The notes under the pieces were generated by a model, which saw only the letters and a list, made by a program, of their open reading frames with translations, did not search any database and was not told the origin of the DNA. From the NCBI GenBank assembly GCA_002392765.1, contig DGHT01000036.1, positions 2,870 through 66,869 on the forward strand: a stretch of 64,000 bases of DNA. Reading direction: 5' to 3'. How positions within the stretch are numbered: the stretch's first letter is position 1; each line of letters begins with the position of its first letter. This stretch comes from Verrucomicrobia bacterium UBA3841. Lineage in GTDB: Bacteria > Verrucomicrobiota > Kiritimatiellia > RFP12 > UBA1067. Made by a program: the position numbers and the translations under genes. Positions 6,289 through 52,652 of the stretch are shown here, piece after piece.

Positions 6289-7362
6289 ATGATGATAAAA
6301 GGCGTCGAAAGGGCGTTCACTCTCATAGAGCTCATTCTCGTGGTCGCTGTCATAGCGATCATATCGGTGATTGCCGTCGGAAAATTCTCCGATCTGAAGC
6401 GCGATTCGTCGCGCAAGGTGAACGTCGCCAACATCAAGAACATCGCCAGAACGATCAACACCGAGCTGGCCGCCAGGGACGGCGAGATCGTGCGGGGAAT
6501 GTTCGCCTACGCGGAAAGTCTGATAGACAGCGCCCCGGGCGGCGGCGACGTCACCGGGCCCGCCGGCGCGTACAACGTCCGCGATTCCTGGTACGACGGT
6601 TCCGGCGGGGTCGTCCCCGGCATCTACTGCGGGATAAAGACGACGGGCGCCGTCGTCAACGCCGGAGGCGTGGGCACGGGGGAGGTGGCCGCGATCTCCG
6701 AAGCGCACGAAAGCAATGTCGGCCTGGAGCCGCTGGCCGTTGCGACCGTGTCGAGAGGAAAGACGTCGCCCGCGAAACTCTGCATGTATTACCTGACGGA
6801 TTCGGATGTGACGGCGCTCAAGGATGCGGGCGTGAGCATCGTGTCGCGCCACAACTATTCGAACCAGCAGGCGTCGAACCTCAACTGGGATTCCAGCAAG
6901 TACCGCACCGAGATGGGATTGCACTCGACCGGAGGCGGACCGGGAATGAGGGCTGATCTTTCGGCGTGCTATCCCGTCGTGCTTACGAACGGATCCGCCG
7001 TCGCGGTCCTGAACCCCGCGTCGTGCGAATCGATCTACCGCGATCTGGGGCTCGACTACGCATCGACCTACAACGTTTCCGGTCTCGATCCGAAAGACCC
7101 TTCCACGTACTACTCAAAGGGGATATGCTGCAAGCTTTACGTCTTCGGCCTCGGACGCGATTGCGCGGCTTCGACGAAGTTTTTCGAAAGCCATCCGCGC
7201 TGTCCCGTGCTCGACAAAACGCATTACCGCAACTATCTGCTGGTGTTCAAGCAGAACACGGGACTGGGCAACACCGGCAGCGCCGTGACTTTCGCCGGGG
7301 TGATCGATCCGTCCGGCAACACGGCGAAGCAGGCGCAGTATTCGGCGGACTGGTCGTCGTGA
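6289..7362 (+). CDS. Large Cys-rich prepilin-type N-terminal cleavage/methylation domain protein (pseudopilin-like)
   Basis: N-terminus MMIKGVERAFTLIELILVVAVIAIISVIAV is a class III signal/pilin-like helix. About 355 aa with many Gly/Cys. ATG 6289 with AAGGA 8 nt upstream. Its stop overlaps the birA ATG by 1 nt. Confidence 0.7.
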   Translation: MMIKGVERAFTLIELILVVAVIAIISVIAVGKFSDLKRDSSRKVNVANIKNIARTINTELAARDGEIVRGMFAYAESLIDSAPGGGDVTGPAGAYNVRDSWYDGSGGVVPGIYCGIKTTGAVVNAGGVGTGEVAAISEAHESNVGLEPLAVATVSRGKTSPAKLCMYYLTDSDVTALKDAGVSIVSRHNYSNQQASNLNWDSSKYRTEMGLHSTGGGPGMRADLSACYPVVLTNGSAVAVLNPASCESIYRDLGLDYASTYNVSGLDPKDPSTYYSKGICCKLYVFGLGRDCAASTKFFESHPRCPVLDKTHYRNYLLVFKQNTGLGNTGSAVTFAGVIDPSGNTAKQAQYSADWSS

Positions 7363-23015: not shown

Positions 23016-23090
23016 TGGCAGCCCCAAGGAGAGTCGAACTCCTCTACCAAGCATGAAAAGCTCGTGTCCTAGCCGATAGACGATGGGGCC
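23016..23090 (-). tRNA. tRNA-Glu (anticodon UUC)
   Basis: Reverse complement folds as a cloverleaf: acceptor GGCCCCA/TGGGGCT (G1-U72), D-stem GTCT/GGAC, anticodon stem CGAGC/GCTTG, loop TTTTCAT (UUC), T-arm AGGAG-TTCGACT-CTCCT, discriminator G, encoded CCA. Confidence 0.85.
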
Positions 23091-26589: not shown

Positions 26590-27708
26590 ATGGAAAACAC
26601 GGACACCAGATTCTTCTGCCTTTGCATGAGCCCTGCGATCGATGCGACGGTGAGGCTGCCGCATGCGCCGAGGGGCGAAGGCGAAATCTTCAAGGATGTC
26701 GCCGAGGATGAGAACGTGGGCGGAAAGGCCGTCAACGTCGCTCGCTGGCTGGCGATAAGAGGCGCGGAGGTCGCCTGCGGCGGACTTCTCGGCGAGGACA
26801 ACGACAGGCCTTTCGTCAAGGAACTTGCAAAGTACGCCATCGAGGACAGATTCGTGCGCGTTCCCGGAGCGACTCGCAGAAACGAGATGATCGTGTGGCC
26901 GGGAGGATCGGTGAAGCTCAACCGCGCGGCTTTTCCCGGATTGGGGAACGGGACGGCCGGGACAGGCGGGACAGATGTGACGGCCAGGGCGATTGACGCT
27001 TTGGCAGACGATGTTTTGTCGCGGTTGTCCGGTTCGTCTAAGATGTCCCGCGCTGACGCCGTAGCGGTCCTTTCCGGTTCGCTGCCGCCCGCCGTCCCGA
27101 AAGATTTCTACGCGAAGGCCGTCGCGCTGTTGAAGTCGCTCGGCTTGACCGTGGTTCTCGACGCGAGCGGCGAGGCCATGAAACTCGCGCTAGACGCCGG
27201 GCCCGACCTCATAAAGCCAAATGCGGAAGAATGCGAAGCGCTCGTCGGATTCGTTCCGGATACGCCGGAAGGGTTTGCCAGGGCAACGGCGCTCCTCCGC
27301 GAAAAGGCGGCTCACGTCGTCATTTCAGACGGCGGATCCGGTGCGTGGTTCGACGGCGAATTCGTCGCCGCGCCGAAGGTCGACGTGACCGATACGACGG
27401 CTGCGGGCGATACTCTTCTTGCGGAATTGTGCTGGAGAATGTTTGGGGGTGGAACAGGAAAACTGGGGGAACATATCCCCCGAGCGAAGGTTGTCCGCAA
27501 CGCGGATGCCCTAGCAGGGGTGGCGTCTCGCCCGTTTGAAGAGGGAAGAGAGAAACTGGGGGAACGGGCGTCTCGCCCGTTTGATGAGGGAAGAGGAATG
27601 AGGGAAGAGGGGAAATGGGCGGTTGCCGCCGGCTCCGCCGCCTGCACCATGCCCGGCGGAGCTCCACCGCCAGTCGAACTTGTCGAACGTCTTGCGGGCG
27701 AAAGATGA
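26590..27708 (+). CDS. PfkB-family sugar-phosphate kinase (1-phosphofructokinase / tagatose-6-P kinase-like) with a repeat-derived C-terminal extension
   Basis: GGKAVNVA and DTTAAGD motifs. The C-terminal ~100 aa are encoded by the GC-rich repeat element at 27437-27610. Confidence 0.65.
   Translation: MENTDTRFFCLCMSPAIDATVRLPHAPRGEGEIFKDVAEDENVGGKAVNVARWLAIRGAEVACGGLLGEDNDRPFVKELAKYAIEDRFVRVPGATRRNEMIVWPGGSVKLNRAAFPGLGNGTAGTGGTDVTARAIDALADDVLSRLSGSSKMSRADAVAVLSGSLPPAVPKDFYAKAVALLKSLGLTVVLDASGEAMKLALDAGPDLIKPNAEECEALVGFVPDTPEGFARATALLREKAAHVVISDGGSGAWFDGEFVAAPKVDVTDTTAAGDTLLAELCWRMFGGGTGKLGEHIPRAKVVRNADALAGVASRPFEEGREKLGERASRPFDEGRGMREEGKWAVAAGSAACTMPGGAPPPVELVERLAGER
27437..27610 (+). repeat. 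GC/purine-rich interspersed repeat (element A) copy 1, inside the PfkB 3' coding region
   Basis: Reverse complement matches 51116-51275 (shared blocks aacgggcgagacgccacccctgctagggcatc, gcgttgcggacaaccttcg, ctcgggggatatgttcccccag). Contains two copies of gcgtctcgcccgtttga and GAGGGAAGAGG tails. Confidence 0.6.
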
Positions 27709-28679
27709 AAATGGAAAACACTTCCAGACGGGATTTCATCCGCAACGGTTTTGCAATGGTCGGGGCCGGGATGTCCGTTATCGCTGCGGCGGACTCCGCC
27801 GCGGCATCGGGCGCACATGAAGCCGCCGGAGATCCGGCTCAAGGGCTGGACGTCACGGCCGATTCCGAGACTCGTTCCGCGTCCGCCCGCAAGCTTAAGG
27901 TCCGCTTCCTCGGCACCGGCGCGATCGACTGGGAGCGCGGGCCGAACGAATTCGGGGAAACGCGCCGTTTCGCGAGCGTGCTGGTGAACGGGAAAGCGCT
28001 TATCGACCTGACAGGACGCACTCGCGAGATGCTGCCGGAGGGATGCCGTCCGGAAGCAGTGTTCTACACCCACTCGCATCGCGACCACTTCGACGCAGAA
28101 GCCGCTCTTTCTCTCGGCGTCAAGCGCGTCTACTGCCACAAGTCGTGGGCCAAGACGGCTGTCGAGAAATTCGAGCAGGCGGCGAACGGACGTCCCGTTC
28201 CCGAAGTCAACGGCATCGTATTCGGCGCGCCGGTCCCCGTATGCGGCACCATGTTCACCGCGCTTCCCGCAAACCATTCCACGAAGCGCAAGGGAGAACA
28301 TTGCGCCATCTATCTTATCGACAAAGGGCCGGCGCGCCTGCTTTACGCGACTGACACTTGCGGCATTCCGCGCGACGCGCTGAAACACGCCGGACTGGAG
28401 CGGAACGCAGGCCGTCCGCTCACGGCGATAATCATGGAAGCGACTGCGGGAATCGGACAGGAGGACAATCCGCGCTTCTTCTTTTCGCATTCGTCCGTCG
28501 ATCTCGTGGCGAGAACCGTCCGCGCCCTCGCAGCGACAGGACGCTACCGTCCGCCGGCTTCGCGTCCCGTCTATATCACGCATCTTATCCGGTCCCAGTA
28601 CGCTTCGATGGCCGAGTTGGAGAATACCCTCCCCGCGCCGCTCAAAGCCGCATACGACGGTCTGGAAGTGGAGTTTTGA
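27705..28679 (+). CDS. Tat-exported MBL-fold metallo-hydrolase
   Basis: Tat motif SRRDFIRNGFAMVGAG. YTHSHRDHFD. C-terminus AYDGLEVEF, paralogous to the 11887 MBL protein. ATG overlaps the PfkB stop. Confidence 0.7.
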   Translation: MKMENTSRRDFIRNGFAMVGAGMSVIAAADSAAASGAHEAAGDPAQGLDVTADSETRSASARKLKVRFLGTGAIDWERGPNEFGETRRFASVLVNGKALIDLTGRTREMLPEGCRPEAVFYTHSHRDHFDAEAALSLGVKRVYCHKSWAKTAVEKFEQAANGRPVPEVNGIVFGAPVPVCGTMFTALPANHSTKRKGEHCAIYLIDKGPARLLYATDTCGIPRDALKHAGLERNAGRPLTAIIMEATAGIGQEDNPRFFFSHSSVDLVARTVRALAATGRYRPPASRPVYITHLIRSQYASMAELENTLPAPLKAAYDGLEVEF

Positions 28680-28752
28680 GCCTCCGCCCGGCGGCGATAT
28701 CAAGGAGATGCGGCATCCTGCCGCGTCCCTTTGCAAAACCTGCTTGTTTGTC

Positions 28753-28825
28753 TCACGCAAAGTACGCAAAGTTCGCAAAGCAACCATAGAAAAGAAACTT
28801 TGCGCGCTTCGCGAACTTGGCGTGA
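28753..28825. repeat. Palindromic element B copy 1: three tandem 9-mers (tcacgcaaag tacgcaaag ttcgcaaag), 16-bp spacer, three inverted 9-mers
   Basis: Direct read. Near-identical copy at 51340-51412; related copies at 30105-30172 and 43688-43761. Confidence 0.7.
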
Positions 28826-28944
28826 AATATATTCGGAGGGCAAATACCTCCAATGACAACAATCCCACAATTCCTCAGTTCCATCTTCCCTCAATTAAAG
28901 TCGAAAAAGTGTCATAGGACACTATGCTTTCACCGTCCTTCTTT

Positions 28945-28953
28945 TGCTATAAT
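28945..28953 (+). promoter_or_regulatory. Extended -10 TGCTATAAT promoter for the regulator gene
   Basis: 22 nt before the ATG at 28976. Confidence 0.4.
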
Positions 28954-28975
28954 ATTGGTGAAAGCAGGGTCGAGT

Positions 28976-30073
28976 ATGTCGGAAAACAAAGCAACTGCAA
29001 TCGCAATCGCCATCAAGAAGAAAATCGAAGACGGCAAATACGGCGCGGGCAAACCGCTGCCGAGCGTCCGGGCTTTGATGCGCATGCACTGCATAGCGCG
29101 TTCCACGGCAAACCGGGTTCTGCAGGAACTCGCCCGAATGGGTGTCGCGCGCCTGCGCAGAGGCGCGGGAACGTTCGTGAACAAACATGCCGCATCCCGG
29201 AAGATCGGACTGATCGTCCCCGGCGTCGCGGTCACTGATTTTTTCAAGCCCGTCGTCAGCGAGATCAACAACCTTGCGCGCGATGCTGGATACGACCTCC
29301 TTTTCCGCGAGGTGTGGAGCGAGAACCGCGAGGAGCGCATTGCGCAGGTGCGCGAGTTCGCCGCGGAGTTCGTAAAGGGCAATTTCGCGGGCGTGATCTA
29401 CGAGCCGCTTGCGGGGCCGATAGGCGACGAGATCAACCCGCGCATCCTGTCGGTGTTCGACAAGAAGAACATACCGGTCGTCCTCCTCGACTGCGACATC
29501 GTGCCGTTCCCAGAACGAAGCCACTACGACGTCGTCGGCGTAAACGACCTCGAAGCCGGAGCGCGGATTGCGAAGCACCTCTTGGACATCGGCGCGAAGC
29601 GCATACACTTCCTCATCTGCTCGCTTTGTCCGACGACTTTCTCGAACAGGCTCGCGGGAGCGGAGTCGCAGCTGAAGCTCGCGGGCGTGAAGATTCCGAA
29701 TGGCGGGAACGTGCTCTACGCCGAGGCGGACGACCTCAAGGCGCTGAAGCGCTACCTCAGGAAGCAGACGCGGCGACCGGACGCGTTCATCTGCAGCAAC
29801 GACGCCATCGCGGCGGTCTTCAAGCAGACTCTGGAGAAGGCAGGCCTTCGCGTTCCGGAGGACGTGATGCTCACCGGCTTTGCCGACCTTTCCGTCGCAT
29901 CGCTCATGACTCCGCCATTGACAACGATCCGCCAGAACCGCGAGCAGATGGCGCAGGCCGCGTTCCGGCGGCTGATGGATCGAATCGAAAATCCGTCTCT
30001 TCCTCCGTGCGACATCTTCCTCCCCGCGCCGCTTATCGCTCGCGGATCGACAACAAAAGGCTGTTCAAAATGA
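28976..30073 (+). CDS. Hybrid transcriptional regulator: GntR-type winged HTH fused to a LacI/periplasmic-binding-protein-type sugar sensor domain
   Basis: N-terminal KPLPSVRALMRMHCIARSTANRVLQEL (GntR HTH). Remainder is a type-I PBP fold (IGLIVP..., DAFICSNDAIAAV, VMLTGFAD). Confidence 0.7.
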   Translation: MSENKATAIAIAIKKKIEDGKYGAGKPLPSVRALMRMHCIARSTANRVLQELARMGVARLRRGAGTFVNKHAASRKIGLIVPGVAVTDFFKPVVSEINNLARDAGYDLLFREVWSENREERIAQVREFAAEFVKGNFAGVIYEPLAGPIGDEINPRILSVFDKKNIPVVLLDCDIVPFPERSHYDVVGVNDLEAGARIAKHLLDIGAKRIHFLICSLCPTTFSNRLAGAESQLKLAGVKIPNGGNVLYAEADDLKALKRYLRKQTRRPDAFICSNDAIAAVFKQTLEKAGLRVPEDVMLTGFADLSVASLMTPPLTTIRQNREQMAQAAFRRLMDRIENPSLPPCDIFLPAPLIARGSTTKGCSK

Positions 30074-30104
30074 ATGACTTGATGGGAAAATCTTGTTTTT
30101 GGCA

Positions 30105-30172
30105 TCACGCAAAGTCCGCAAAGTTCGCAAAGTTTCTTTCAGGACTTCGCGGACTTGGCGAACATTGCGTGA
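30105..30172. repeat. Palindromic element B copy 2, between the regulator and GH29
   Basis: tcacgcaaagtccgcaaagttcgcaaag ... acttcgcggacttggcgaacattgcgtga. Confidence 0.65.
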
Positions 30173-31599
30173 GAATTAAACTCGCCTTCGCATTGCTGTG
30201 CGTATTTTCGTCCGTTATTGCCACAGCGACACCGCGTAGGCTTTTCGCCGAGACTCCAGCGCAGAAGGCCGAGCGTCTTTCCTGGTGGACGCACGACCGC
30301 TTCGGCATGTTCATACATTTTGGACTCTATTCGCTTCCGGCGCGCGGCGAATGGGTGAAGATGACCGAGCGCAAGGATATGAAGGAGGAGAAGTATCAGG
30401 AGTACTTCGACAATTTCAACCCCGACCTCTTCGATGCGAAGGAGTGGGCGAAGACGGCGAAGGCGTCCGGAATGAAATACGCCGTCCTTACGGCGAAACA
30501 CCACGAGGGCTTTTGCCTCTGGGACTCGAAGTTCACGGACTACAAAATAACCAACACCGCGTTCAGGCGCGACATCGTAAAGGAGTTCTGCGAGGCGTTC
30601 CGCGCCGAGGGCATTCGCGTGGGGCTATACTACTCGCTCATCGACTGGCACCACCCCGATTTCACGATCGACGCCCGCCATCCGCGCATGCCGCCGGGGT
30701 GCCGTCCCGCCGACCCGTCTGGAACCGTCGGCGGAGAGGAGACTTGGAAGCGCATCAACGCCGGAAAGGACATGAACCGCTACCGCCAGTATATGAAGGA
30801 TCAGGTCGGCGAACTTCTCACAAACTACGGGCGCATTGACATCGTCTGGTTTGACTTTACCTATCCTAACGACGGCGGGCACGGCAAGAGCGCGGCGGAC
30901 TGGGATTCGGAAGGCCTTCTCAAATACGCGCGCAGCCTCCAGCCGTGGATTATCGTAGACAACCGCCTTGGGCTTACCGACACGGCGGACGGCTGGGATT
31001 TCGTGACGCCCGAGCAGTTCAAGGTCGAGAAATGGCCGACCGTGAACGGTGAGCGCGTACCCTGGGAGACGTGCCAGACGCTGTCGGGCAGCTGGGGATA
31101 TGCCCGCGACGAAATGACGTGGAAGACGACGGAGAATGTCCTTGCCACATTGATCCATTCCGTCTCGAAGGGCGGCAACATGATCCTGAACATCGGCCCC
31201 ACGGGGCGCGGACGCTTCGACTTCCGCGCCGTGAGTCACTTGAAGGACATCGCGGACTGGATGGATCTAAACTCGCGCTCGATCTACGGCTGCACGGAAG
31301 CGCCGGAGAAATTCACGCCGCCGGAGAATACGGTTCTTACGTACAATCCCGAGACACGCCGGCTCTACATCCATCTCCTGGCCTATCCCGGCGGACGCCT
31401 CGCCTGTCCGTTCGCCGCCGACGTCGCCTACGCGCAGTTCCTCCACGACGCATCCGAAATCACGCTCGAACGTCACGGTACGGCTGCGGAGCAGACGCAG
31501 GAATTCTACAAGAGCGGCAACGAAGGAGTTTCCTACTTCCTCCTCCCCGCCGTCAAGCCCGACGTCCTCATACCCGTAATCGAGGTGATGCTAAAATGA
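30169..31599 (+). CDS. Alpha-L-fucosidase, GH29
   Basis: WTHDRFGMFIHFGLYS, TAKHHEGFCLWDS and GLYYSLIDW GH29 blocks. Signal peptide VRIKLAFALLCVFSSVIATA from GTG 30169. An alternative ATG at 30070 (ATGA overlap with the regulator stop) would read through element B and add a 33-aa pre-signal extension. Confidence 0.75.
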   Translation: MRIKLAFALLCVFSSVIATATPRRLFAETPAQKAERLSWWTHDRFGMFIHFGLYSLPARGEWVKMTERKDMKEEKYQEYFDNFNPDLFDAKEWAKTAKASGMKYAVLTAKHHEGFCLWDSKFTDYKITNTAFRRDIVKEFCEAFRAEGIRVGLYYSLIDWHHPDFTIDARHPRMPPGCRPADPSGTVGGEETWKRINAGKDMNRYRQYMKDQVGELLTNYGRIDIVWFDFTYPNDGGHGKSAADWDSEGLLKYARSLQPWIIVDNRLGLTDTADGWDFVTPEQFKVEKWPTVNGERVPWETCQTLSGSWGYARDEMTWKTTENVLATLIHSVSKGGNMILNIGPTGRGRFDFRAVSHLKDIADWMDLNSRSIYGCTEAPEKFTPPENTVLTYNPETRRLYIHLLAYPGGRLACPFAADVAYAQFLHDASEITLERHGTAAEQTQEFYKSGNEGVSYFLLPAVKPDVLIPVIEVMLK

Positions 31600-31625: not shown

Positions 31626-31652
31626 CGTGTAGAACGTGTAGATCGTGTAGAG
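31626..31652. repeat. Left terminal inverted repeat: (cgtgtagNN)x3
   Basis: cgtgtagaacgtgtagatcgtgtagag; its reverse complement matches 33077-33103 at 25 of 27 positions. Confidence 0.8.
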
Positions 31653-31763
31653 CCTTTCTACATGTTGCTTTCGCTTCTGGGAGTTTCGGAGTTTGGGAGA
31701 TTCAAAAGACTCCTATACTCCAAAACTCCCAGCAACGAAAGTGAGAAAATGATGTGCGGTGTT

Positions 31764-32873
31764 CTACAGCCGCTTGAGCCACAGGCCGAAGAATCTGTCG
31801 TAGACGACGTATCCCGCGTCCGACCGGTAAAGAAGGTCGCGTTCCGTCAACTTGGCTGCTGCGGATCGGACTGTGGAAGCGGCCGGGAGCTTGTTGCGCC
31901 TGATAAAATCTCCGCCGGATATGGACTTTGCAACACCCTGTCTGCCGACCGCCTTCAGGATGGATTGTTCGGCGGGAGTCTGGCTTCGCAGAAGGTCGAA
32001 GTAGAACGATTCCGATTCCGCAACGAGTTCATCCACGGTATCATCGACCTGTTGGACGGAATCGAGTCCGCTACCGTGCGTCCAGACGCGGTTGAGGATG
32101 CTTTGGATGTACCACGTTATTCCCTCGAAGCGTTCGTAGAGATGGCGAAACGCCCCTTCCGAGAAGGTGCGTCCTTCGCGGCGGAAGAACCCCTCGGCGA
32201 ATTGCCCGTACTTTCCGGCGTCGATGGTGCCGAGAGCCATGAGCTGCGTGCTTTGGTAGAAAGGACCCTTGGGCGAGACGAACATGGCGTCCATCATGTG
32301 TTTCCTGGAGCCTGCGAATATGAAATGCGCGTTCGGAACGAATTGGATGTAGCTTCTGAGAAGCGCCTCCGCCCCCTTTTCCGGAAACTCGCGAACCTGC
32401 TGGAACTCGTCGATGGCAATCACGACCTTGCGCTTGCGCGACGCGATGTAGTCGAAAGTGTCCTTAAGCGTGGCCTTGGCCTGCGACGGCGCGAGGTCGA
32501 AGGAAAAGGAGAAGGATCCGTCGTTGTTCGGCGTAAGCGTCGGACGGCAGCTCTTGAAGAACGAAAGAATCTTTCTCCCGACGCGCTCCGCCGGGGAGTC
32601 GAGCCTGTCGAGGACTGTGGCGGCGAACGTCTGCACGAACGAAGTGAGGTCTTCGATAGCGAAGATGTCGAGATAGACCGTCGCATGGGTCTTCTCGAGT
32701 GTCCGGAAGGCGTTGTGGACGAGACCGGTCTTGCCGTAGCGGCGCGGCGCGACGAGCGTCACGTCCCTTCCGTTGGAGATCGCGGAGACGAGCTTTTGCG
32801 TCTCTGCGGCGCGGTCGCAGAAGTACTCAGGCCCCGCGTAGCCGCGTATCAGAAAAGGGTTGTCGAGTTTCAT
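31764..32873 (-). CDS. AAA+ ATPase of the archaeal-ATPase / DUF234 type
   Basis: Walker A APRRYGKTGL. Walker B-like VVIAIDEFQ. C-terminal DUF234-like winged-helix region. ATG (MKLDNPF) at 32873, preceded on the minus strand by TTTGATATAAT 7 nt upstream. Confidence 0.7.
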   Translation of the reverse strand: MKLDNPFLIRGYAGPEYFCDRAAETQKLVSAISNGRDVTLVAPRRYGKTGLVHNAFRTLEKTHATVYLDIFAIEDLTSFVQTFAATVLDRLDSPAERVGRKILSFFKSCRPTLTPNNDGSFSFSFDLAPSQAKATLKDTFDYIASRKRKVVIAIDEFQQVREFPEKGAEALLRSYIQFVPNAHFIFAGSRKHMMDAMFVSPKGPFYQSTQLMALGTIDAGKYGQFAEGFFRREGRTFSEGAFRHLYERFEGITWYIQSILNRVWTHGSGLDSVQQVDDTVDELVAESESFYFDLLRSQTPAEQSILKAVGRQGVAKSISGGDFIRRNKLPAASTVRSAAAKLTERDLLYRSDAGYVVYDRFFGLWLKRL

Positions 32874-32880
32874 GCGCAAT

Positions 32881-32891
32881 ATTATATCAAA
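32881..32891 (-). promoter_or_regulatory. Extended -10 TTGATATAAT (minus strand) for the ATPase, leaderless spacing; a 19-bp perfect palindrome gcgacgaaattttcgtcgc lies at 32918-32936 in the -35 region
   Basis: Direct read of the reverse complement. Confidence 0.45.
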
Positions 32892-33076
32892 AATTCGCAC
32901 GTTGCGACGAAATTTTCGCGACGAAATTTTCGTCGCAGAAAAGTGGTGCGTTCAAAATCGTCTCATCTTTCGTGTATTTCGCGTATTTCGTGGTTCCATG
33001 AACCGCCTACAATTGCCGCGAAAATGCAAGTAGAAGTGCCGCGAAAGTTAAAGTAAGGAGTGCGGCATGATGACGC

Positions 33077-33103
33077 AACTACACGATCTACACGTTCTAC
33101 ACG
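33077..33103. repeat. Right terminal inverted repeat: (NNctacacg)x3
   Basis: aactacacgatctacacgttctacacg. Confidence 0.8.
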
Positions 33104-37838: not shown

Positions 37839-39631
37839 GAAACTTGTGCGGATCAATACTCGCGGCGATGTTTGCGCTTTTGGCCGCAGCCAGACCTGTG
37901 CCGCGTCCGGCGATGCTGAATCCGGCAAAATTCGACGCAGACGACGTCCAGGCGCTCAGGGACTTCGGCGAATTGCGCAAGGCGTCCGCGGCTCGCGAAT
38001 ATTTCGTCTCGCCGTCCGGCGACGATGCGGCGGACGGCTCGGCCTCGCATCCGTGGCGCACAATCAGCCATGCTGCGGCGGTCGCAGAATCGGGCGATAC
38101 AGTGACAATCCACGCAGGCGTTTACCGCGAGTGGGTGAAGCCCGCAAATGCCGGTTCCGAAGGTGCGCCGATCACCTACCGTGCCGCAAAGGGCGAGCGC
38201 GTCGTCGTGACGGGCGCCGACGAAGTGCGCGGCTGGACGAAGCGTCCCGACGGACTATGGGAGGCGCACGTTTCCTATGATTCCTTCGGCGGCGTCAATC
38301 CCTTCACGGACTTCATCGAGGGCTCCTGGTTTCTGCCGAAGGACTTGAACCACTTCCGCACGCGTCTCATCCAGTGCGGAAAGCCGCTGAACCTCGTCGG
38401 CGAGGAGATTCTTGCGCCGCCGGACCACGGCGTTCCGCATCTTGAGCGAGGGACTGCCGCGCTGATCCCAGGCCGCGTTTCGGGGATGATCGTCGCTGCT
38501 TTCGAGCACGATCCAAACGTGGAAGTGCCGGAACTTGTCGTGCGGCCCTGCTGCTTCTACCCGACCACGACGCGCCGCGACTATATCGCGCTCAGGGGAA
38601 TCGCGTTCCGCGACGCCGCGCCGACATGGGCGCATCCGCGCGGCGAACAGCCCGGTGTCGTCGGCACTAACTGGAGCCGCGGATGGACTATCGAGGATTG
38701 CGAAATCTCTGGCTCGTGCTGCGCGGGGCTTACGCTCGGCAAGTGCGCCAACGATTTCGACTCGTTCTGGAACGATCCGAAGCAGAGCTTTTCGCTTTGG
38801 GGCAAGCGCCTTTCGGAGCGCGACCTTTCGGAAATAGGCCACCACACGGTCCGTCGCTGCCGCATCTCCGATTGCGGACAGGCCGGCATCTGCGGCGGTT
38901 TCGGCGCGGTCTGGTCGACCATCGAGGAATGCGACATCTCCAATTGCTTCAAGGGGAAAAAGTTCTTCGGATACGAGATGGCCGGAATCAAGATACACGC
39001 GGCGGTCGGCATGACAATCCGCCGCAACCGCATCCACGACAACGGATGCTTCGCCGTATGGCTCGACTGGATGGCGCAGGGGACGCGGCTTTCCGGAAAC
39101 GTTTTCTGGAACAACGACCAGCACGACCTCTACCTCGAAGTCGTCCACGGGCCGAACCTCCTCGAAGGAAACGATTTCCTCTCCGAGAAGGCCATCCACT
39201 TCAAGGGCTCCAACAACATCGCACTTGTCGGCAACCGCATCTTCGGCTCGCTCGCGTGCGATGACGACGCGAGTCTGGGCTATCGGAAGACGCCTGTCTT
39301 TCATCCGCACTCGACGCGTATCAAGGAACTATACGCCGACCCAACGCCCGCGAACCTCGCATTCATCAACAACATTCTTCCGGAAGAACCGCATTTCTCC
39401 GATCTCGCGAGCAATCCGTGCAGGTGTGAAGACAACTTCCTCGTCCCGCGCGAATACTGGCTGATCGATGCGGCAACAGGCGATGTCGGCATCAGTCCGC
39501 CGCCATCCTTGCCGCGTCCGGACTTCAAGCCCGTCGGCGCCGGACGCCTCGGCGCCGGCCTTGTCTCGGGCGAGGACTTTCCACAGCCGTCGCCTGAATA
39601 TTCAACGCCGAAGAGAGAAATGAAGCTATGA
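37835..39631 (+). CDS. Right-handed parallel beta-helix (pectate-lyase fold) enzyme
   Basis: N-terminal YFVSPSGDDAADGSASHPWRTISHAAAVAESGDTVTIHAGVY cap. PbH1-like repeats (ISGSCCAGLTL, ISDCGQAGICGG, IRRNRIHDNGCF, GNVFWNN). Confidence 0.65.
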   Translation: MRNLCGSILAAMFALLAAARPVPRPAMLNPAKFDADDVQALRDFGELRKASAAREYFVSPSGDDAADGSASHPWRTISHAAAVAESGDTVTIHAGVYREWVKPANAGSEGAPITYRAAKGERVVVTGADEVRGWTKRPDGLWEAHVSYDSFGGVNPFTDFIEGSWFLPKDLNHFRTRLIQCGKPLNLVGEEILAPPDHGVPHLERGTAALIPGRVSGMIVAAFEHDPNVEVPELVVRPCCFYPTTTRRDYIALRGIAFRDAAPTWAHPRGEQPGVVGTNWSRGWTIEDCEISGSCCAGLTLGKCANDFDSFWNDPKQSFSLWGKRLSERDLSEIGHHTVRRCRISDCGQAGICGGFGAVWSTIEECDISNCFKGKKFFGYEMAGIKIHAAVGMTIRRNRIHDNGCFAVWLDWMAQGTRLSGNVFWNNDQHDLYLEVVHGPNLLEGNDFLSEKAIHFKGSNNIALVGNRIFGSLACDDDASLGYRKTPVFHPHSTRIKELYADPTPANLAFINNILPEEPHFSDLASNPCRCEDNFLVPREYWLIDAATGDVGISPPPSLPRPDFKPVGAGRLGAGLVSGEDFPQPSPEYSTPKREMKL

Positions 39632-41139
39632 AATTGGTATTGGCAACACTGGCAACACTGGCAACATTCGCCGCGACAGCGGCGGAGACTTTCTGCAATC
39701 CCATGCCGATTCCGGACACGCCCGTCGGCATACTCTGCCGCGACAGCTTGAACGGCGACGCGATTCCCGAAATCGCATGGCAGAAAGATTGCTGGACAAA
39801 TGCCGCCTGCGGTTTCAAGGAGGTGCGCCAGTTCCGCGAGCTTGCCGATCCGGTCGTTCTCGCCGAGGGCGACACATGGTATCTCTATTCGAGCGCGGGG
39901 CTTATGTGGACCAGCGACGACTTCGGCGGCACATGGCGGCATGTGGGCGTGCAGGCCGAAGCCGACTATGCGCCCGCAGTCGCCAAGTTCCGCGGCAAGT
40001 ACTACCTTTGCACATCAGGCGGACCGCTGAGCGTGGCCGATTCGCCCACGGGTCCGTTCCGGACGCTTGGCGCGTTCGACAAGAAGTCGTTCTCGTCCGA
40101 TTCGCAGATGCCGCACACCCTGGATCCGGCGCTTTTTGTCGATGGCGACCATCTCTATCTTTACTGGGGATGCTTCGCAAAGCCGAAGGCCGTCTGGTGC
40201 GTGGAGCTAGATCCGGAGAATCCGCTTCGCGCAAAGACGCCCGGCTCTGCCGTCTGCCTCGTCGAGTTCGACACGGAAAGATATCCGTGGCTCGACAGGC
40301 TGATCGAGGGCGCGTGGGTGTTCAAGCGCGACGGCACGTACTACCTCACGTATGCGACCTACGGAACGGAGGATTCGCGCTACTGCTGGTGCGCGATGAA
40401 AGGTTCGGGTCCGCTCGGGCCGTTCGTCCCGCAGAAGAACAATCCGTTCTTCATGACGGAGAAGGGTCTTGTCACAGGAACAGGCCACGGCTCTATCTGG
40501 TGCGATAAAAACGGAGACTGGTGGATCAACAGCTGCGTGTCTGTCGCAGCCTATCACGGCTTCGAGCGGCTGATCGCCCAGGATCGTCTCTTTTTCGAGC
40601 CGGACGGGGATATTGCCGTCGGCAAGGCTACCGAAACGCCGCAGTGGCTTCCGTCCAGCGGCAGGAAGGGCGGTACGGGATGGAAGGCGATACCGCTCAA
40701 GTCCGACAGAAGCGCGGCGACCGACATGAGCATCAAGACGTGGTCGACGGTCGAGAGTCTGCCGTCGAAGACCGTTTTTGAGTTCCCCGGAGAGAAGACG
40801 ATCCGAGCGTTCCGCGTCATCTGGCGCGACATCGGGCTCGACACGAATCGCGGCATCTTGCCGGGGCCGTATCGCTACCGCGTGGACTATCGCTCGAACG
40901 GTGTCTGGTGGACTTGGCTCGACGCCTCCAAGAACGACGTAGATCTCATGGTGGACTACCGCGAGGCGCCGGAGGCGGTTGCCGACGCGGTTCGACTTGT
41001 CGTCCTCTCCGCCCCGCCTGGCATCACTCCAGGGCTCGTGGAGTTTACGGTCTTTGGCTGTATGTTGGGGGAATTGGGAAGAGGTTCCCCATTCCCCGTT
41101 CCCCTTTCCCAGTTCCCCATAAAAGGAGACCAACCATGA
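39628..41139 (+). CDS. GH43 five-bladed beta-propeller glycosidase with a C-terminal beta-sandwich domain
   Basis: ADPVVLAEGDTWYLYSS (catalytic base Asp), LDPALFVDGDHLYLYWG, IEGAWVFKRDGTYYLTYA (acid Glu). The last ~25 aa (GELGRGSPFPVPLSQFP) are encoded by a gggaa/ccccgttcccc repeat. Confidence 0.75.
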   Translation: MKLVLATLATLATFAATAAETFCNPMPIPDTPVGILCRDSLNGDAIPEIAWQKDCWTNAACGFKEVRQFRELADPVVLAEGDTWYLYSSAGLMWTSDDFGGTWRHVGVQAEADYAPAVAKFRGKYYLCTSGGPLSVADSPTGPFRTLGAFDKKSFSSDSQMPHTLDPALFVDGDHLYLYWGCFAKPKAVWCVELDPENPLRAKTPGSAVCLVEFDTERYPWLDRLIEGAWVFKRDGTYYLTYATYGTEDSRYCWCAMKGSGPLGPFVPQKNNPFFMTEKGLVTGTGHGSIWCDKNGDWWINSCVSVAAYHGFERLIAQDRLFFEPDGDIAVGKATETPQWLPSSGRKGGTGWKAIPLKSDRSAATDMSIKTWSTVESLPSKTVFEFPGEKTIRAFRVIWRDIGLDTNRGILPGPYRYRVDYRSNGVWWTWLDASKNDVDLMVDYREAPEAVADAVRLVVLSAPPGITPGLVEFTVFGCMLGELGRGSPFPVPLSQFPIKGDQP

Positions 41140-44100
41140 ACAAAGCAATCGCATCTCTCGTCTGCATCGGCGCCGTGTGCACTGCGCTGGCGGATTGGAC
41201 GCTCGAGCGTAGCGCGGCTAAGGACGGGCTTTTGATGACGGACGGCATCAAGCCCGGGTCGTATTATGTGAGGCTTGAAGGATTTTCGGGTGACGACGCG
41301 ACCACCCGCGCCAAGGTGTGGCACGAGGGCCGGCGTATCGAGTTCGTGCGCGGCGGGCCGTGGATGGACGACAACGGCAAAGAGCTGATGACGCTCGAGT
41401 CGCGTCCGGTGGAAGTCAAACCGGGCGAGGCGTTCCGTGTCGACAAACAGACTCCGTGGACGCGGATCGTCCTCGCCGAAAAGCCGCTCGACTACGCGCC
41501 GCAGCGCGTATTCACGAACATGGCGCTCGACCCGGAAGTCGCTTTCGCCGCGGAGGCAGATTTCGGCGTGTCGAACGTGGCCGTGACGCTCAACAGCTAT
41601 CTTGGTTCGGCGGTCAAAGGACGGCTCCGAGTGAAGGTGACGGACTACTACGGCAAGACGCTCGCAGAAACGGATCGCAGGGACGTCGAGCTGGGAAGGA
41701 CGCTTAAACTCGATGTCCCCTACGAGGACAACGGCTCGGGGCAGTTTCGCGCGGCGGTCGGCTTCACGGACGGATCCGGACGCAAGGTCTATCGCGTCTT
41801 CGCGCGGCTTGCGGACGCAAAGTCGCCGCACCGCGAGCTTCTGAGGATGAACGAGGGATGGACGCGCGTCTCGGGCAAGAAGGCCGTGATGCCCGCCGAG
41901 GTAAAGGACGGCGCGGAGAAGTTCAGCGGCACTTTCGCGGTTCCGGCCTCGTTCGCCGGAAAGCGCATATTCTTCAAGGCGCTCAGGATTTCGTGCGTTG
42001 CGAAGCTTTACGTCAACGGCGCGGAGGCGGCGACGTTCGGCGAGGACGGCAATTTCGCGGGCGATATGGAGGCGGACGTGACGCAATTCGTCAAACCGGG
42101 CGAGACAAACGAATTCGTCATCGACGCGAAGCGCGCGGACGAAGAGAAGTATCCCAGCGGAATGCCGGGACGCCTCTCGGCGGTTTCCGAACTTGCGCTG
42201 GAGGCGCGCGGCGAAAACGCAATCGGCCGTGTTTCGGTCGTGACGTCGTTCCGCGAAAAGACGATTCGCGTCAAGGCGGAGCATCCGGCTGGCTTTACCG
42301 TGCGAAACTCCGTATGGCGCGGAGACGAGAAGCTTCTTTCCTTCGCGGACGAATCCAAGTGGGAGAATCCGCCGCTTTGGGGCCCCATCAACTTTCCTCT
42401 CCTCAAGCTCGTCACTGAACTTGTCGATGCCAAGGGGAATGTCGTGGACGAGAAGCTGACGCGTTTCGCGTTCCGCGAGTTCTGGCCGGACGGCATGGCG
42501 CTCATGTGGAACGGCCACCGCGTGAAGGGTGAAGCGCGGGCGTTCATCAGCACGTGGGGGTGGTGGGACTTCGACAGGCGCTGCAAGCGCCAGTTCAACT
42601 GCGACATCCTATGGGAAGGCAAGCTGCGAGGCATCAAGTTTCTGCGGCACGTCTACAACTCGTCGGAGTTTCTTGATTTCTGCGACGAGGCGGGGATTCC
42701 CTGCGCCGTAGGTTTCGCGACGATCGCGAATCCATCTCCCGAAAAGAGCGCGAACAAGGAGTTCTGGGCGTGGAAGGAGTACAACGACCGCTGCCTCGCC
42801 GCGACCCTGCGCAACCATCCGTCTGTCATGACGTGGTATATCACGAACGAATACTACGCCGAGAGCGAAGACCGCAATCTGGGGCCAGTCCAGTCCGCGC
42901 TGAGGAACATCCGCGCGTTCGATCCGTTCCACTTCGCCGAAACGGGCTGCGACCTCGATCTGCGCGGCGAGAACAACATAATCTCGACGCACTATCCCGT
43001 CGAGCTGCTCTCCTTGCGCAAGGCCGGGTGCTACATGCCGTATTCGTTCTACTGGCGCGATATCGAAAAGCCTTTCGTGAAAGGGCAGGCGATTCCCTCC
43101 GGGCAGATCCTGAAGGTCTGCAACATCTACGCCGATTCGCCGGCCAAGTGGGGCGAGAAGCCGATTTTCATCAACGAGACGTGCTGGGACTTCTTCTTCA
43201 ATCCGCCGTTCGGATGGACGCGCCTTGCGGGCGACGAGGTTTTCAACGATCCAAGATACTGCGACAAGTGGCACATCGAGACGGAAGTCGAGGCGGTGCG
43301 CGGGCATCGCGATGCAGACGTGACGCTCTGGACGCCGTGGCGCTGGTACCACATCGACCCCGAGTGGCGCGTTTCGCCGGAGATTGACGTCGTGAATATC
43401 CAGCGCTATTCGCGCTTTTACGAGGGGACGGAGGTCAAGTACGACGTCAACGTGTTCTACGACAGGTGGCGTCCCGCGACTGTGACGTGGTTCTGGCGGC
43501 TTGAAGACTCGGAAGGCAAGACGGTTGTCTCGTCCAAGGATGAGCGGATAGACGTTGACACGTCCGCGTTTATCAGAAAGCAGATTTCCTTCAAGGCGCC
43601 AAAGCCTGGTGAATACACGCTTGTCTTCGGGTTGAAGGGAGTCTGCGAGAAGACGCTTGACATTGTGTCTAGTTCGCGGTTTATGTCTCACGCAAAGCTC
43701 GCAAAGGGCGCAAAGTCGTCTGGCGAAGATGAACTTCGCGGGCTTGGCGAACTTGGCGTGAGAAAATATGCCAATGTATTCGGAGTGCGCGACGTCCTTT
43801 CCGAGCGGCTGCTTGACCGCGCGGCGGCAGGCGAGACCATCGTCATCCTCGCGCGGGACGACTACCCGGAGTGGCTGCCGGAGATACCGTCCGTATCCGA
43901 CCAGTCCGCAGCGATCCTGCGCACGTACAGAACGCGCCATCCGATACTGAAAGGGTTCAAGAAAGACGACCTCAAGTATTTCTATCCGAAATCGATCGCA
44001 TGCGACAGGGCGTTTGCGAAGCCTTCGGGCGGCAACGCGAAGACTGTTCTCGAATTCGGCGGCGCGTCGGGGCTAGTCTATTCCGCGCTTGTCGAAGTGC

Positions 44101-48367: not shown

Positions 48368-48568
48368 TACGAATGCAGCTGCCGCCGCAAGAGACGAGTT
48401 CCTCGTGGACTACGTACGCGTCTACGATCTGGTGCGATAGAAAGAAATATGGAAATGTGCAAATATCCAGTATCCATTATCCAATGATGGCGGGGCAAAT
48501 TGGATATTGGCTGTTGGCTGTTGGATATTTTCACATTTCTACATTAAACAAATGCGTTCACAATTGAC

Positions 48569-50426: not shown

Positions 50427-51209
50427 ATGAGAACTATATGTGAAGCAACTCTATCAGCAATGCTTTTGACGGTTTTCTGCGGCGGAACTTTTGGCTTGGA
50501 GCATTGTCATCCGGTCGGCGAACGGGGAACTGGGAACGGGGAATTGACGGTGTCGCCTGGCGGGATGTCTCCGAGGGAAGCACTTCTCGCAATCCGCGCG
50601 GCGAAGGCGAAAGGGAATACCGGCGCATGGACTGTCCGTGTGGAACGCGGAGCCTATTTCCTCGCAGAGCCGCTTGTTTTCACGCCAGCGGATTCCGGAA
50701 CGCCCGAAGCGCCTGTACGCTGGGTCGGCGAAGACGGCAAGGCGGCGTTCGTCGGCGGGGAGCGGGTCAAAGGATGGCGAGACGAGGGCAATGGCTTGTG
50801 GTCGGCACCTGTTCCGAAGGATGCGGAAGGGAATCCAGTATGGTTCGAGCAGCTGTGGGTAAACGGACGCCGTGCGGAGCGTGCCCGCGCGCCGAACGCT
50901 GTTCCGGACGATCCAGCCGCTGGCTGTATGAAGCTCTGCGAAGCGACGGAGAGCGTTGTCACGAATGCGGTGGACGGGTCGGTGGCGTACATCCAGCGCA
51001 TCGCTTCCACCAATGCGGCGATGTCCAAGTTGGAGAACACCCTCCCCGCGCCGCTCAAAGCCGCATACGACGGTCTGGAAGTGGAATTTTCAGCCGCCGG
51101 GACGGCGGCTTTCCCAGTCAATAACGGGCGAGACGCCACCCCTGCTAGGGCATCGCGAACGCGACTCGCCTTCGGCTCGGGGGATATGTTCCCCCAGTGT
51201 GGTCCCTAA
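50427..51209 (+). pseudogene. Truncated parallel beta-helix enzyme gene (first ~200 codons) fused to a duplicated 3' end of the MBL gene; chimeric remnant
   Basis: N-terminal cap similar to the 37835 protein (SPGG...AWTVRVERGAYFLAEPLVFTPADSGTPEAPVRWVG...VKGW). From about 51031 the sequence is a copy of 28614-28679 (ENTLPAPLKAAYDGLEVEF), then reads into repeat A2. Confidence 0.6.
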
Positions 51210-51285
51210 CTGGGAAAGCACCCCTGCCAGGGCATCCGCGTTGCGGACAACCTTCGGTTGGGGAATATGGTATCCTGCTGGCGAT
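51091..51285. repeat. GC-rich repeat element A copy 2 (a partial third copy lies at 51480-51550)
   Basis: Matches the reverse complement of 27437-27610. Interrupts the duplicated segment relative to 28614-28876. Confidence 0.6.
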
Positions 51286-51339
51286 ATCAAGGAGATGCGG
51301 CATCCTGCCGCGTCCCTTTGCAAAACCGGCTTGTTTGTC

Positions 51340-52612: not shown

Positions 52613-52652
52613 GGGAACAGGGATAAAGTGTAAAATGTAAAGAGTAAAATAT

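Follow-up and report, generated by a model that had tools for sequence, protein, structure and literature searches.

Short palindromes built from tandem 9-mers lie at four places in a 64-kb window, the whole stretch of DNA analysed here, and raise the question of whether they are the traces of a mobile element, hairpins that serve the host, or binding sites of a local regulator. The original prediction had left two readings side by side, MITE/REP-like elements and iterated operators for the GntR/LacI-type regulator encoded next to them. The present analysis supports and sharpens the former. We regard the four elements as ORF-less members of a selfish palindromic family, the full form of which carries a predicted GxxExxY nuclease gene, and assign this reading a probability of roughly 65%.

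Architecture of the four palindromes

All four sequences were found where they had been predicted, on the + strand: copy 1 at 28753–28825 (73 nt), copy 2 at 30105–30172 (68 nt), copy 3 at 43688–43761 (74 nt), and copy 4 at 51340–51412 (73 nt), the last being 100% identical to copy 1. Their common plan is TCA-(CGCAAAG-NN)x3, a loop of 12–18 nt, and (CTTNGCG-NN)x3-TGA, in which the arms measure 27–28 nt and the inverted units are CTT[T/C/G]GCG with the exception of one CATTGCG. In copy 1, TCA(CGCAAAGnn)x3 is followed by the loop and then by CTTTGCG cg CTTCGCG aa CTTGGCG TGA. The predicted succession of arm, spacer and inverted arm is thereby retained, while the predicted spacer of 11–16 bp is replaced by loops of 17, 12 and 18 nt in copies 1, 2 and 3, measured from the last heptamer to the first inverted heptamer. 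At 68–74 nt, the whole elements are small (<~300 bp) and non-coding. The sequence CGCAAAGNNCGCAAAG occurs 11 times in the 64-kb window at no more than one mismatch, compared with 0.09 times in shuffles. The perfect CGCAAAG arm comes first on the + strand, the strand of the neighbouring genes, in all four copies.

The count of four is correct for the palindromes as such, but not for independent copies. Copies 1 and 4 are situated in one larger duplication (28693–28884 versus 51280–51471, 95% identity), which is accompanied by a further duplicated stretch (28606–28686 versus 51019–51099, 93% identity). The block with copy 1 thus spans 28606–28884 on the + strand and takes in the 3′ end of paralogous upstream genes; its partner, 51019–51099 plus 51280–51471, is split by 180 bp of different hairpin repeats inserted between its two parts. 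Copy 4 stems from this segmental duplication and not from an independent insertion, so that three independent copies remain. As their spacers and loops are not the same, these three do not descend recently from a single master. Inspection of the flanks of the three independent and ~7 related copies revealed no evident target-site duplication, only a degenerate T-rich/GTC...GAC/A-rich extension of the palindrome with no direct repeat. We also note that many other short-period palindromes occupy the intergenic regions of the source genome.

Several further readings of the palindromes were considered and dropped. A CsrA-type GGA sponge is contradicted by the window spacers, which contain no GGA, and coding tripeptide repeats by conservation that falls on third codon positions; DnaA boxes and phased A-tracts were likewise set aside. 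The idea that the terminal GTG regularly provides the start codon for the next gene agrees with copies 2 and 3 alone; elsewhere in the family, stops come directly after it.

Orthologous sites and coding sequences

Comparison of orthologous loci reveals that compact copies come and go. The CGCAAAG palindromes are missing from the orthologous loci of the closest relatives, and the palindromes of the window are either absent or replaced in L124–L138; copy 1, for example, is lacking in L130. At the site of copy 2, the loci L133, L135, L138 and L129 have overlapping genes and no element, and in L124–126 and L130 another palindrome, an 8-mer one, stands in its place. The copies are therefore not conserved with their flanking genes, and many copies exist elsewhere, in keeping with a repeat family of the MITE/REP-like kind rather than with ancient local sequence.

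Compact copies can also sit in frame inside coding sequences, as is the case for two of the three independent copies. The original prediction had noted that open reading frames run through two elements, which is correct and understates the case, as copies 2 and 3 lie within called genes of 509 and 1519 aa, respectively. Copy 2 begins 35 nt past the ATG of a GH29 alpha-L-fucosidase gene (30070–31599, + strand), a position that holds for the CDS as called from ATG 30070, which stands in an ATGA overlap with the stop codon of the regulator gene. The element is translated in frame as ..HAKSAKFAKFLSGLRGLGEHCV.. before the signal-peptide core, and its left arm is identical at 28 of 28 positions to that of a compact palindrome in L269. 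Copy 3 forms an in-frame insert of ~24 codons (aa 851–876, SHAKLAKGAKSSGEDELRGLGELG) in an interdomain linker of a secreted multidomain protein (41136–45695, + strand). An exhaustive HMMER search provided 12 homologues of 1516–1621 aa that run across this junction without the insert, and, judged from these sequences, copy 3 entered a conserved gene as a discrete insertion that kept the frame. The elements are tolerated inside genes because a stop codon can arise within the arms CGCnAAGnn/nnCTTnGCG, whatever the frame, only where a CTTnGCG unit has A as its free base; whether an insertion breaks the frame is decided by the loop and the terminal TGA alone.

Relatives with a gene between the arms

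The same arms are found at more than 240 loci in many bacterial phyla and in archaea, with tandem-9-mer palindromes in Acidobacteria, Chloroflexi, Planctomycetes, Verrucomicrobia, Bacteroidota, Proteobacteria and Methanoperedens. In some Rhodanobacteraceae loci, tandem 7-nt repeat arrays flank the CGCAAAG arms. The tandem-9-mer palindromes are absent from the repeat and RNA databases searched, and the literature, searched by repeat sequence and family name, yielded nothing on the repeats or on GxxExxY mobility. Contigs of metagenomes are seen to end at palindromes.

At ~12 loci the arms closely flank a ~125-aa GxxExxY gene (PF13366, TIGR04256, PD-(D/E)XK), some of these arrangements being nested or partial. 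The gene is present in nine of 258 loci that were selected by the CGCAAAG pattern alone; it is situated exactly between inverted arms in L223, L237, L232, L026 and L076, and in L119 it is surrounded by nested inverted arrays made of another unit. The test was also run in reverse on an unbiased set of eight GxxExxY genes, collected by tblastn from plasmids and chromids. Tight triple-9-mer inverted arrays enclose the genes in L260 (CACAGAG units) and L261 (CACAGAG/CGCAGAG units), while L262 has one array, L259 adjoins a full palindrome and L266 has an 11-bp inverted repeat. The GxxExxY genes of L263, L264, L189, L257 and L265 are found with direct repeats, outward-facing arms or no repeats. The inverted-repeat score of the flanks reaches at least the 99th percentile of 400 control ORFs for 9 of 18 GxxExxY genes, and for 3 of the 8 in the unbiased set. 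The catalytic E...D...ExK residues are kept in 16 of 17 GxxExxY proteins, and we know of no biochemical activity for any member of the family. Sequence searches of the PDB and of a phage collection gave no match. Neither the 64-kb window nor the related loci L121–L138 contain a GxxExxY gene.

The window copies and the cassettes of L223, L237, L232/P0271 and L261 have in common inverted arms of at least three 9-bp units with a conserved YRYnRAG heptamer and arm ends (T)TCAC/GTGA(A), each GxxExxY clade having its own heptamer in the same architecture. Other cargo is found between such arms as well, namely ordinary genes in L009 and L276 and an ATPase gene in the window, so the arms are not exclusive to the GxxExxY nuclease. 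The ATPase cassette (31626–33103, without assigned strand) has a left arm at 31626–31650 (CGTGTAGAACGTGTAGATCGTGTAG) consisting of CGTGTAGAA CGTGTAGAT CGTGTAG, and a right arm at 33079–33103 that is its exact inverse, complementary at 25 of 25 positions; the triple-9-mer design that it had been predicted to share with the palindromes is indeed present. The arms enclose an ATPase_2/AAA_14 gene (31764–32873, − strand). This cassette is absent from the orthologous loci, and the exact ATPase protein was found in this one context only. The ATPase as a general partner enzyme was rejected, as tblastn returned no homologue in the 258 loci.

The best-sampled cassette encodes P0271, a GxxExxY protein of a Kiritimatiellae bacterium, of the same class as the window, that is found on 578 contigs. 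Its AlphaFold2 model, built from a shallow alignment, has a pLDDT of 46, too poor for use. The arms of the P0271 cassette, TCA CGCAAAG tt CGCGAAG tg CGCTAAG ... CTTTGCG ta CTTTGCG aa CTTTGCG TGA, were compared by eye with the reverse complement of copy 1, and the two arms together are identical to it at 51 of 56 positions (91%). Both are asymmetric in like manner, with one perfect arm and another that is variable at the fourth position. P0271 loci also hold compact palindromes whose left arm equals that of copy 2 (28/28). In nearly all cases, P0271 and its variants occupy a single site behind a TetR gene. At this TetR/flavodoxin site, L172 represents L232 minus the 366-nt ORF body: arms and loop remnants are identical, and the difference is bounded by the start and stop codons. 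Filled and empty alleles of one cassette are thus available, and its ORF exceeds the flanking genes in conservation by a wide margin. Among seven locus variants, the ORF has a mean pairwise nucleotide identity of 99.0%, as against 96% in the arms, 89.8% in TetR and 85.4% in flavodoxin; the loci were chosen by exact protein identity, which makes the ORF look more conserved at non-synonymous sites than it is.

Gene-carrying relatives with near-identical arms therefore exist within the same bacterial class, and for these, whose arms are 91% identical, GxxExxY may be the mobilising enzyme. In the selfish family that we propose, the full-length element would consist of a ~125-aa GxxExxY gene in the loop between two arms. 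The heptamer arrays would serve as recognition sites for the nuclease, or for a protein acting with it, in DNA of duplex, hairpin or cruciform form, and spread would proceed by nuclease-initiated recombination of a homing-like type and/or by excision and insertion. Compact copies such as those in the window may have lost the ORF or may never have received one, and their maintenance or movement would take place in trans. A broader proposal, to which we give somewhat less than even odds, is that the widespread GxxExxY/PF13366 proteins are the nucleases of an unrecognised class of mobile elements, which would spread across bacteria and archaea by homing or excision and shed ORF-less palindromes into intergenic and coding DNA.

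The filled and empty alleles lend themselves to another explanation as well, in which a free-standing homing gene, the GxxExxY ORF, invades the loops of a separate REP-like repeat family, and the window copies were never part of a cassette. L172 and L232 differ by the ORF body alone, from start to stop codon, and identity that declines outwards, with 99% in the ORF, 96% in the arms and 85–90% in the flanks, is what co-conversion around a homing site predicts; compact palindromes are, in addition, far commoner than gene-carrying ones. We nevertheless consider this explanation unlikely, though it deserves serious attention. It does not account for the arrival of the palindromes themselves at new sites, for instance within a CDS, or for clade-specific heptamers in one architecture, and the arms, being better conserved than the flanks, travel with the ORF.

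Hairpins, slippage, recombination sites and operators

It is improbable that the palindromes are REP-like mRNA hairpins in the service of the host, acting as intercistronic stabilisers, RNase III sites or translation occluders, with only an incidental link to the nuclease. The predicted hairpins are far more stable than shuffled controls, with folding energies of −30.8 to −38.6 kcal/mol on the + strand (z −3.8 to −5.4) and −36 to −41.3 kcal/mol on the − strand (z −6.0 to −7.5). All copies are co-oriented with transcription, and copy 2 pairs an internal GTG at 30169 into the base of its stem. Intergenic arrays in other phyla are found more often in convergent (19) and co-oriented (31) than in divergent (7) positions, and their orientation relative to genes is weakly biased (19 same, 12 opposite). 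The weaker of the two folds is, however, that of the sense strand, because it contains A.C and A.G mismatches instead of G.U. Orthologous sites do not conserve the elements, two copies lie within CDSs, and no Rfam family matches: a tRNA alone reaches the gathering threshold in the window, and a permissive scan of 28690–30250 gave only sub-threshold generic miRNA hairpins at the elements. The 5′ flanks are rich in T and the 3′ flanks in A, and a promoter and terminator scan of 27–34 kb placed no site at the elements, so intrinsic terminators are rejected.

The pattern of conservation in the arms also argues against selection for a hairpin. It was derived from 81 compact palindromes of two collections by reading the arm that had not been used in the search, the composition of which is, in percent, C98 T95 T95 [T69] G98 C95 G95. 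Six heptamer positions (CGC-n-AAG) are thus fixed at 95–98%, whereas the fourth base and the two spacer bases are free. Complementarity of the NN spacers is not kept, amounting to 40% as compared to 30.5 ± 2.6% with partner arms shuffled. Fixed heptamers separated by barely complementary spacers fit site recognition better than hairpin selection or replication slippage.

Slippage combined with template switching is the core of a further explanation, according to which the hairpins grew in place and nothing moved. The abundance of other short-period palindromes between the genes of the source genome and the variation of unit numbers from locus to locus would suit such an origin. Slippage would copy the spacers too, yet spacers differ while heptamers are identical; unrelated loci and genomes carry identical arms, and copy 3 is a discrete foreign insert in a linker. 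A local origin is therefore very improbable. Just as little credence is given to recombination sites of the integron attC type between shufflable gene cassettes. Gene content and order downstream of TetR do vary between the variants of the P0271 locus, with arms or whole palindromes at some junctions, and the ATPase gene of the window is bracketed by arms. Many P0271-locus junctions nonetheless have no arm, the ends are TCACG/CGTGA and not RYYYAAC/GTTRRRY, the arms are periodic arrays, unlike attC sites, and no integrase-type gene is present among the genes called in the examined loci.

Copy 1 is intergenic, lying 74 nt past the stop of an MBL-fold gene and upstream of the promoter of the GntR/LacI-type regulator (CDS 28976–30073). 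The control region of this gene (28909–28953, + strand) consists of the palindrome GTGTCATAGGACAC at 28909–28922 followed by TATAAT at 28948–28953, an arrangement kept in the window and in five orthologous loci, all of those with upstream sequence. The prediction of operator arrays for this regulator, attractive in that two copies flank its gene and that tandem and inverted short repeats look like iterated operators, is not supported and can be practically dismissed, since the conserved operator-like palindrome and −10 box lie elsewhere, orthologues with 78–88% identical regulators lack the palindromes or have others in their stead, and identical arms stand beside unrelated genes in many phyla. 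We saw no evidence of any service to the host by the palindromes at this locus.

Relation to known elements

The proposed palindrome-borne nuclease cassettes resemble REP/RAYT systems and Rickettsia palindromic elements (RPEs). RPEs are ~100–150 bp long, are confined to Rickettsia and do not consist of tandem 9-mers, and we know of no nuclease or transposase gene associated with them. The palindromes described here differ from them in spanning many phyla and in having gene-carrying members. RPEs occur in intergenic regions as well as in frame within protein-coding genes, where they are translated as an extra peptide (PMC10969869). The in-frame palindromic insertion is a feature shared with copies 2 and 3, the sites of which are free of the element in homologues.

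REP/REPIN sequences resemble the present family in that dispersed short palindromes are combined with one small nuclease-type gene flanked by repeats, and in that both favour positions downstream of genes. RAYT is an HUH/Y1 enzyme of the IS200/IS605 type, and REPs are extragenic imperfect palindromes of 20–40 nt with a 5′ GTAG-type tetranucleotide (GT[A/G]G). This is in contrast to the PD-(D/E)XK protein, the arrays of CGCnAAG 9-mers ending in TCACG, and the copies within CDSs observed here; no RAYT-type Y1/HUH gene is present among the genes called around the elements. Like MITEs, the elements are small and non-coding with terminal inverted repeats and have longer gene-carrying relatives with the same ends, and the L172/L232 pair resembles an internal deletion; in contrast to MITEs, neither a DDE transposase nor a target-site duplication was seen, and within the 64-kb window the independent copies are not near-identical. 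The presence or absence of a small nuclease ORF at one site and its conservation above that of the flanks recall homing endonuclease genes, and free-standing homing endonucleases with a PD-(D/E)XK fold include I-Ssp6803I. Here, however, the site is a palindrome repeated at many places, no intron or intein is involved, and the nuclease is a predicted one. Tandem units of 7–9 nt in non-coding DNA, more frequent between co-oriented genes and rarer between divergent ones, are a feature in common with the 7-nt repeats of cyanobacteria and xanthomonads (STRR; GGGNATC; PMC4692102). Those repeats are G-rich, are interpreted as quadruplex-forming, and have neither an inverted-arm organisation nor a linked gene.

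In practical terms, the palindromes break metagenome assemblies and mislead gene callers on start codons. With a 125-aa protein and a 70-bp DNA site, the system is small, and testing should be straightforward. If the link between palindromes and nuclease holds, it would give the “GxxExxY protein” family, found in many phyla, its first biological role and would explain a class of tandem-9-mer intergenic palindromes; it would also add a second system beyond Rickettsia in which palindromic repeats lie in frame within functional genes. Under the broader proposal, the many “periodic-arm” palindromes of environmental genomes would be the footprints of this element.

Architecture of the palindromes and their positions inside genes

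The four palindromes at 28753-28825, 30105-30172, 43688-43761 and 51340-51412 (copies 1 to 4, all plus strand) lie where the original prediction placed them and share one layout: TCA, three direct CGCAAAG-NN units, a 17-, 12- or 18-nt loop, three units in inverted orientation and TGA. In every copy the perfect arm comes first as read on the strand that carries the neighbouring genes. The left-arm heptamers are CGCAAAG in 12/12 cases while the right-arm heptamers read CTT[T/C/G]GCG, apart from one CATTGCG; the arms therefore differ systematically at the fourth heptamer base and in the spacers. The window contains 11 occurrences of the motif pair where 0.09 would be expected, and hairpin stability exceeds that of shuffled controls by 4-7 standard deviations. 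Copy 4 is an exact match to copy 1; both reside in a 95% duplicated block, which also takes in the 3' end of the paralogous genes upstream; thus all four predicted copies are present, but only three are independent. No Rfam family matches the palindromes, the sole Rfam match in the window being a tRNA gene (23019-23090, minus strand).

A second repeat family, of AACGGGCGAGACGCC(C)GTT hairpins flanked by CCCCCAGTT / AACTGGGGG, is present at 27462-27581, 51100-51280 and 51516-51543. The copy-4 duplicate contains an interrupting 180-bp block of this family, and in L130, the locus of the closest relative, related sequence stands in place of copy 1. CCCCAGT is also the heptamer of cyanobacterial STRR1.

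Two copies are read through in frame, as had been proposed. Copy 3 lies inside 41136-45695, which the gene caller treats as a single gene for a 1519-aa secreted protein. An exhaustive profile search returned homologues (1516-1621 aa) whose alignment spans the junction, and there SHAKLAKGAKSSGEDELRGLGELG, between two conserved domains, is found in the window protein alone; copy 3 is therefore an in-frame insertion of ~24 codons. Copy 2 begins 35 nt after the ATG of the GH29 fucosidase gene (30070-31599), which overlaps the regulator stop codon as ATGA, and the ORF continues through it. Reading of the sequence shows that CGCnAAGnn and nnCTTnGCG are free of stop codons in all frames except where the free base of CTTnGCG is A, and that otherwise a break in the frame can come only from the loop or from the terminal TGA. 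In-frame palindromes within genes are the hallmark of Rickettsia palindromic elements (RPEs) (PMC10969869), which copies 2 and 3 resemble in this placement. We also note a 9-mer array (TTGGCAACA x3, 39637-39672) in the first codons of gene 39628-41139, encoding LAT LAT LAT in an apparent signal peptide.

Turnover at the regulator-fucosidase locus

The GntR plus periplasmic-binding-domain regulator (28976-30073) stands between an MBL-fold gene (27615-28679) and the fucosidase. Its control region contains a GTGTCATAGGACAC palindrome (28909-28922) and TATAAT (28948-28953), and this order precedes the regulator in every orthologue having upstream sequence, among loci whose regulators are 78-88% identical to that of the window. 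No CGCAAAG palindrome occurs in these orthologous regulator-fucosidase loci. The proposal that the elements are operator arrays of the adjacent regulator is thereby contradicted.

The same comparison reveals that the elements are missing or replaced at the same site, that is, palindromes turn over quickly at fixed orthologous positions. The regulator and fucosidase genes overlap without an intervening element in L133, L135, L138 and L129 (as ATGA or GTGA in L133 and L138), and another palindrome with 8-mer arms (TGTGAAAA, TATGGAAA and others) occupies the spot in L124/125, L126 and L130; copy 1 is missing from L130 as well. The fucosidase frame stays open for 150-250 nt through the 8-mer palindromes of L125 (6122-6290), L126 (6125-6320) and L130 (1540-1760).

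The fucosidase first codons have been entered by two different palindrome families in different lineages, all open in frame. The right arm in L125/L126 appears to encode part of a signal peptide (..ICIFAYFHNSTIAYC..). The L124 fucosidase CDS carries an in-frame 33-nt array of GGGGAAC/GGGGAAT 7-mers (6625-6665, peptide RGTGNGERGTG) that is missing from L125 despite identical regulators.

Other periodic palindromes are found in the window. A composite nested one (48440-48545), between GH97 and rhamnosidase genes, has outer arms of 8-mers (TATGGAAA TGTGCAAA / TTTTCACA TTTCTACA) and inner arms of 7-mers (TATCCAG TATCCAT TATCCAA / TTGGATA TTGGCTG x2 TTGGATA). Inverted 7-mer arrays stand on either side of the pfkB kinase gene (51683-52612): TTTCACA TTTTACA CTTTAT (51582-51603) and ATAAAG TGTAAAA TGTAAAG (52621-52649).

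The same arms in other genomes and around GxxExxY genes

A scan of one genome per species found CGCAAAGNNCGCAAAGNNCGCAAAG at no fewer than 120 loci; the taxa among the matches listed include Verrucomicrobiota, Kiritimatiellia, Planctomycetota, Acidobacteriota, Chloroflexota, Nitrospirae, Methylomirabilota, Gammaproteobacteria, Nostoc and Methanoperedens archaea. A metagenome scan with a TCA-extended pattern added further loci, the number listed being a lower bound. Many of the matches listed are full palindromes, some nested within arrays of other 9-mers. Across 81 compact palindromes, which consist of arms and a short loop without a gene, the arm not fixed by the search is 95-98% conserved at six heptamer positions and 69% at the fourth, and spacer complementarity is 40% versus 30.5% with shuffled partners. 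The arms are thus conserved in a sequence-specific manner; the pattern fits growth by slippage or a hairpin kept for pairing alone poorly, and resembles a recognition-site array. The arrays occupy 19 convergent, 31 co-oriented and 7 divergent intergenic regions, divergent ones being least favoured. The Nostoc loci (L027, L033, L042, L106) lack an inverted CTTTGCG arm: there the CGCAAAG triple forms the loop region of a different conserved palindrome (GGTTCAGTTAAGGC ... GCTTAACTGAAC), and this is probably a separate repeat family of cyanobacteria in which the unit is reused.

Several arm pairs lying >300 nt apart among the pattern-selected loci enclose an ORF of ~125 aa, identified as a GxxExxY protein of the PD-(D/E)XK nuclease family (TIGR04256, E 1e-31 to 1e-42; PF13366 PDDEXK_3) with conserved catalytic E, D and ExK residues. 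The gene is present in 9/258 loci picked by the CGCAAAG pattern: exactly between inverted arms in L223, L237, L232, L026 and L076, with nested arms of another 9-mer in L119, and in other arrangements in L189 and L257. The reverse test took eight GxxExxY genes from plasmids and chromids by protein similarity alone. Those of Bernardetia and Bacteroides finegoldii have tight triple-9-mer inverted arrays (CACAGAG and CGCAGAG), which in B. finegoldii end in TTCAC/GTGAA as in the window family; that of Sphingomonas has one array, that of Gemmatirosa adjoins a full CGCAGAG palindrome, and the remaining four show one inverted repeat, direct repeats or no repeat at all. The flank inverted-repeat score reaches at least the 99th percentile of 400 control ORFs for 9/18 GxxExxY genes (3/8 in the unbiased set); the genes are placed non-randomly between such arms. 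Small insertions within housekeeping operons appear typical of the family: in Sphingomonas parapaucimobilis (L262, 395-823) the gene separates fabD from fabG in the operon for fatty-acid synthesis, and in other records it lies between radA or ade and a neighbour.

A cassette of the window's own lineage encodes P0271, the GxxExxY protein of L232, labelled Kiritimatiellae and identical on 578 contigs. Its left arm (TCA CGCAAAG tt CGCGAAG tg CGCTAAG) precedes the ORF and supplies, as the variable arm, the ribosome-binding site AAGGAG; the right arm reads CTTTGCG ta CTTTGCG aa CTTTGCG TGA. The arms match the reverse complement of copy 1 at 51/56 positions, with the same perfect-arm/variable-arm asymmetry, and compact palindromes at P0271 loci carry the left arm of copy 2 (28/28). 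Filled and empty alleles exist, since L172 is the TetR/flavodoxin site of L232 with identical arms and without the 366-nt ORF body. Seven variants of the locus, selected for an identical protein sequence, have mean pairwise identities of 99.0% (ORF), 96% (arms), 89.8% (TetR) and 85.4% (flavodoxin); the cassette and its neighbours therefore have decoupled ancestries, as homing or gene conversion would produce. This best-sampled cassette sits at one site.

Downstream of TetR-GxxExxY-flavodoxin (L267-L276, 2359-6378), redox/hydrolase genes (FMN reductase, Fe-ADH, aldo-keto reductase, hexapeptide transferase, SnoaL, nitroreductase, acyltransferase) vary in content and order from one otherwise related locus to another, some junctions carrying arms or whole palindromes. 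In independent assemblies (L122, L123, L282, L283) contigs stop at the palindromic repeats, at a point 227 bp upstream of pfkB in some and 2 nt past the GxxExxY ORF in others, and 549/643 P0271 index blocks hold only contigs <2 kb; the elements break metagenome assemblies.

Cargo other than GxxExxY can lie between similar arms. The triple-9-mer design is indeed common to the ATPase cassette, as predicted: an ATPase_2/AAA_14 gene (31764-32873, minus strand) lies inside exact 25-nt inverted arms of CGTGTAG 9-mers (31626-33103). None of the orthologous loci contains this cassette, and exact matches to the protein are confined to the window's context. The gene flanks (31664-31750, 32901-33030) hold further periodic hairpins, including GGGAGTTT-type 8-mers x3 with their inverse, CGACGAAATTTT repeats and TTTCGTGTA 9-mers x3, the last recurring at the end of the L130 regulator gene (1488-1515).

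A proposed palindrome family with an associated nuclease

We consider it fairly probable, at roughly two in three, that the window palindromes are members of the GxxExxY cassette family, whose gene was not found within the 64-kb window. It is a more tentative proposal, somewhat less likely than not, that GxxExxY mobilises a new class of elements. The nuclease would recognise the heptamer arrays and drive the spread of the element, and the window copies may derive from, or be serviced by, a GxxExxY cassette. A survey that includes PF13366 gives its function as 'unknown' and its distribution as mixed bacterial and archaeal clades (PMC3424549), and a search of the open literature by repeat sequence and family name returned no description of the repeats or of GxxExxY mobility.

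The predicted MITE/REP-like nature is supported: the family shares traits with MITEs, REP/RAYT systems and homing endonuclease genes, without fitting the full definition of any of the three. No target-site duplication was seen at the palindromes. Traits are also shared with RPEs. The family is best read as selfish palindromic repeats with an associated nuclease, and there is a real chance that it forms a distinct class.
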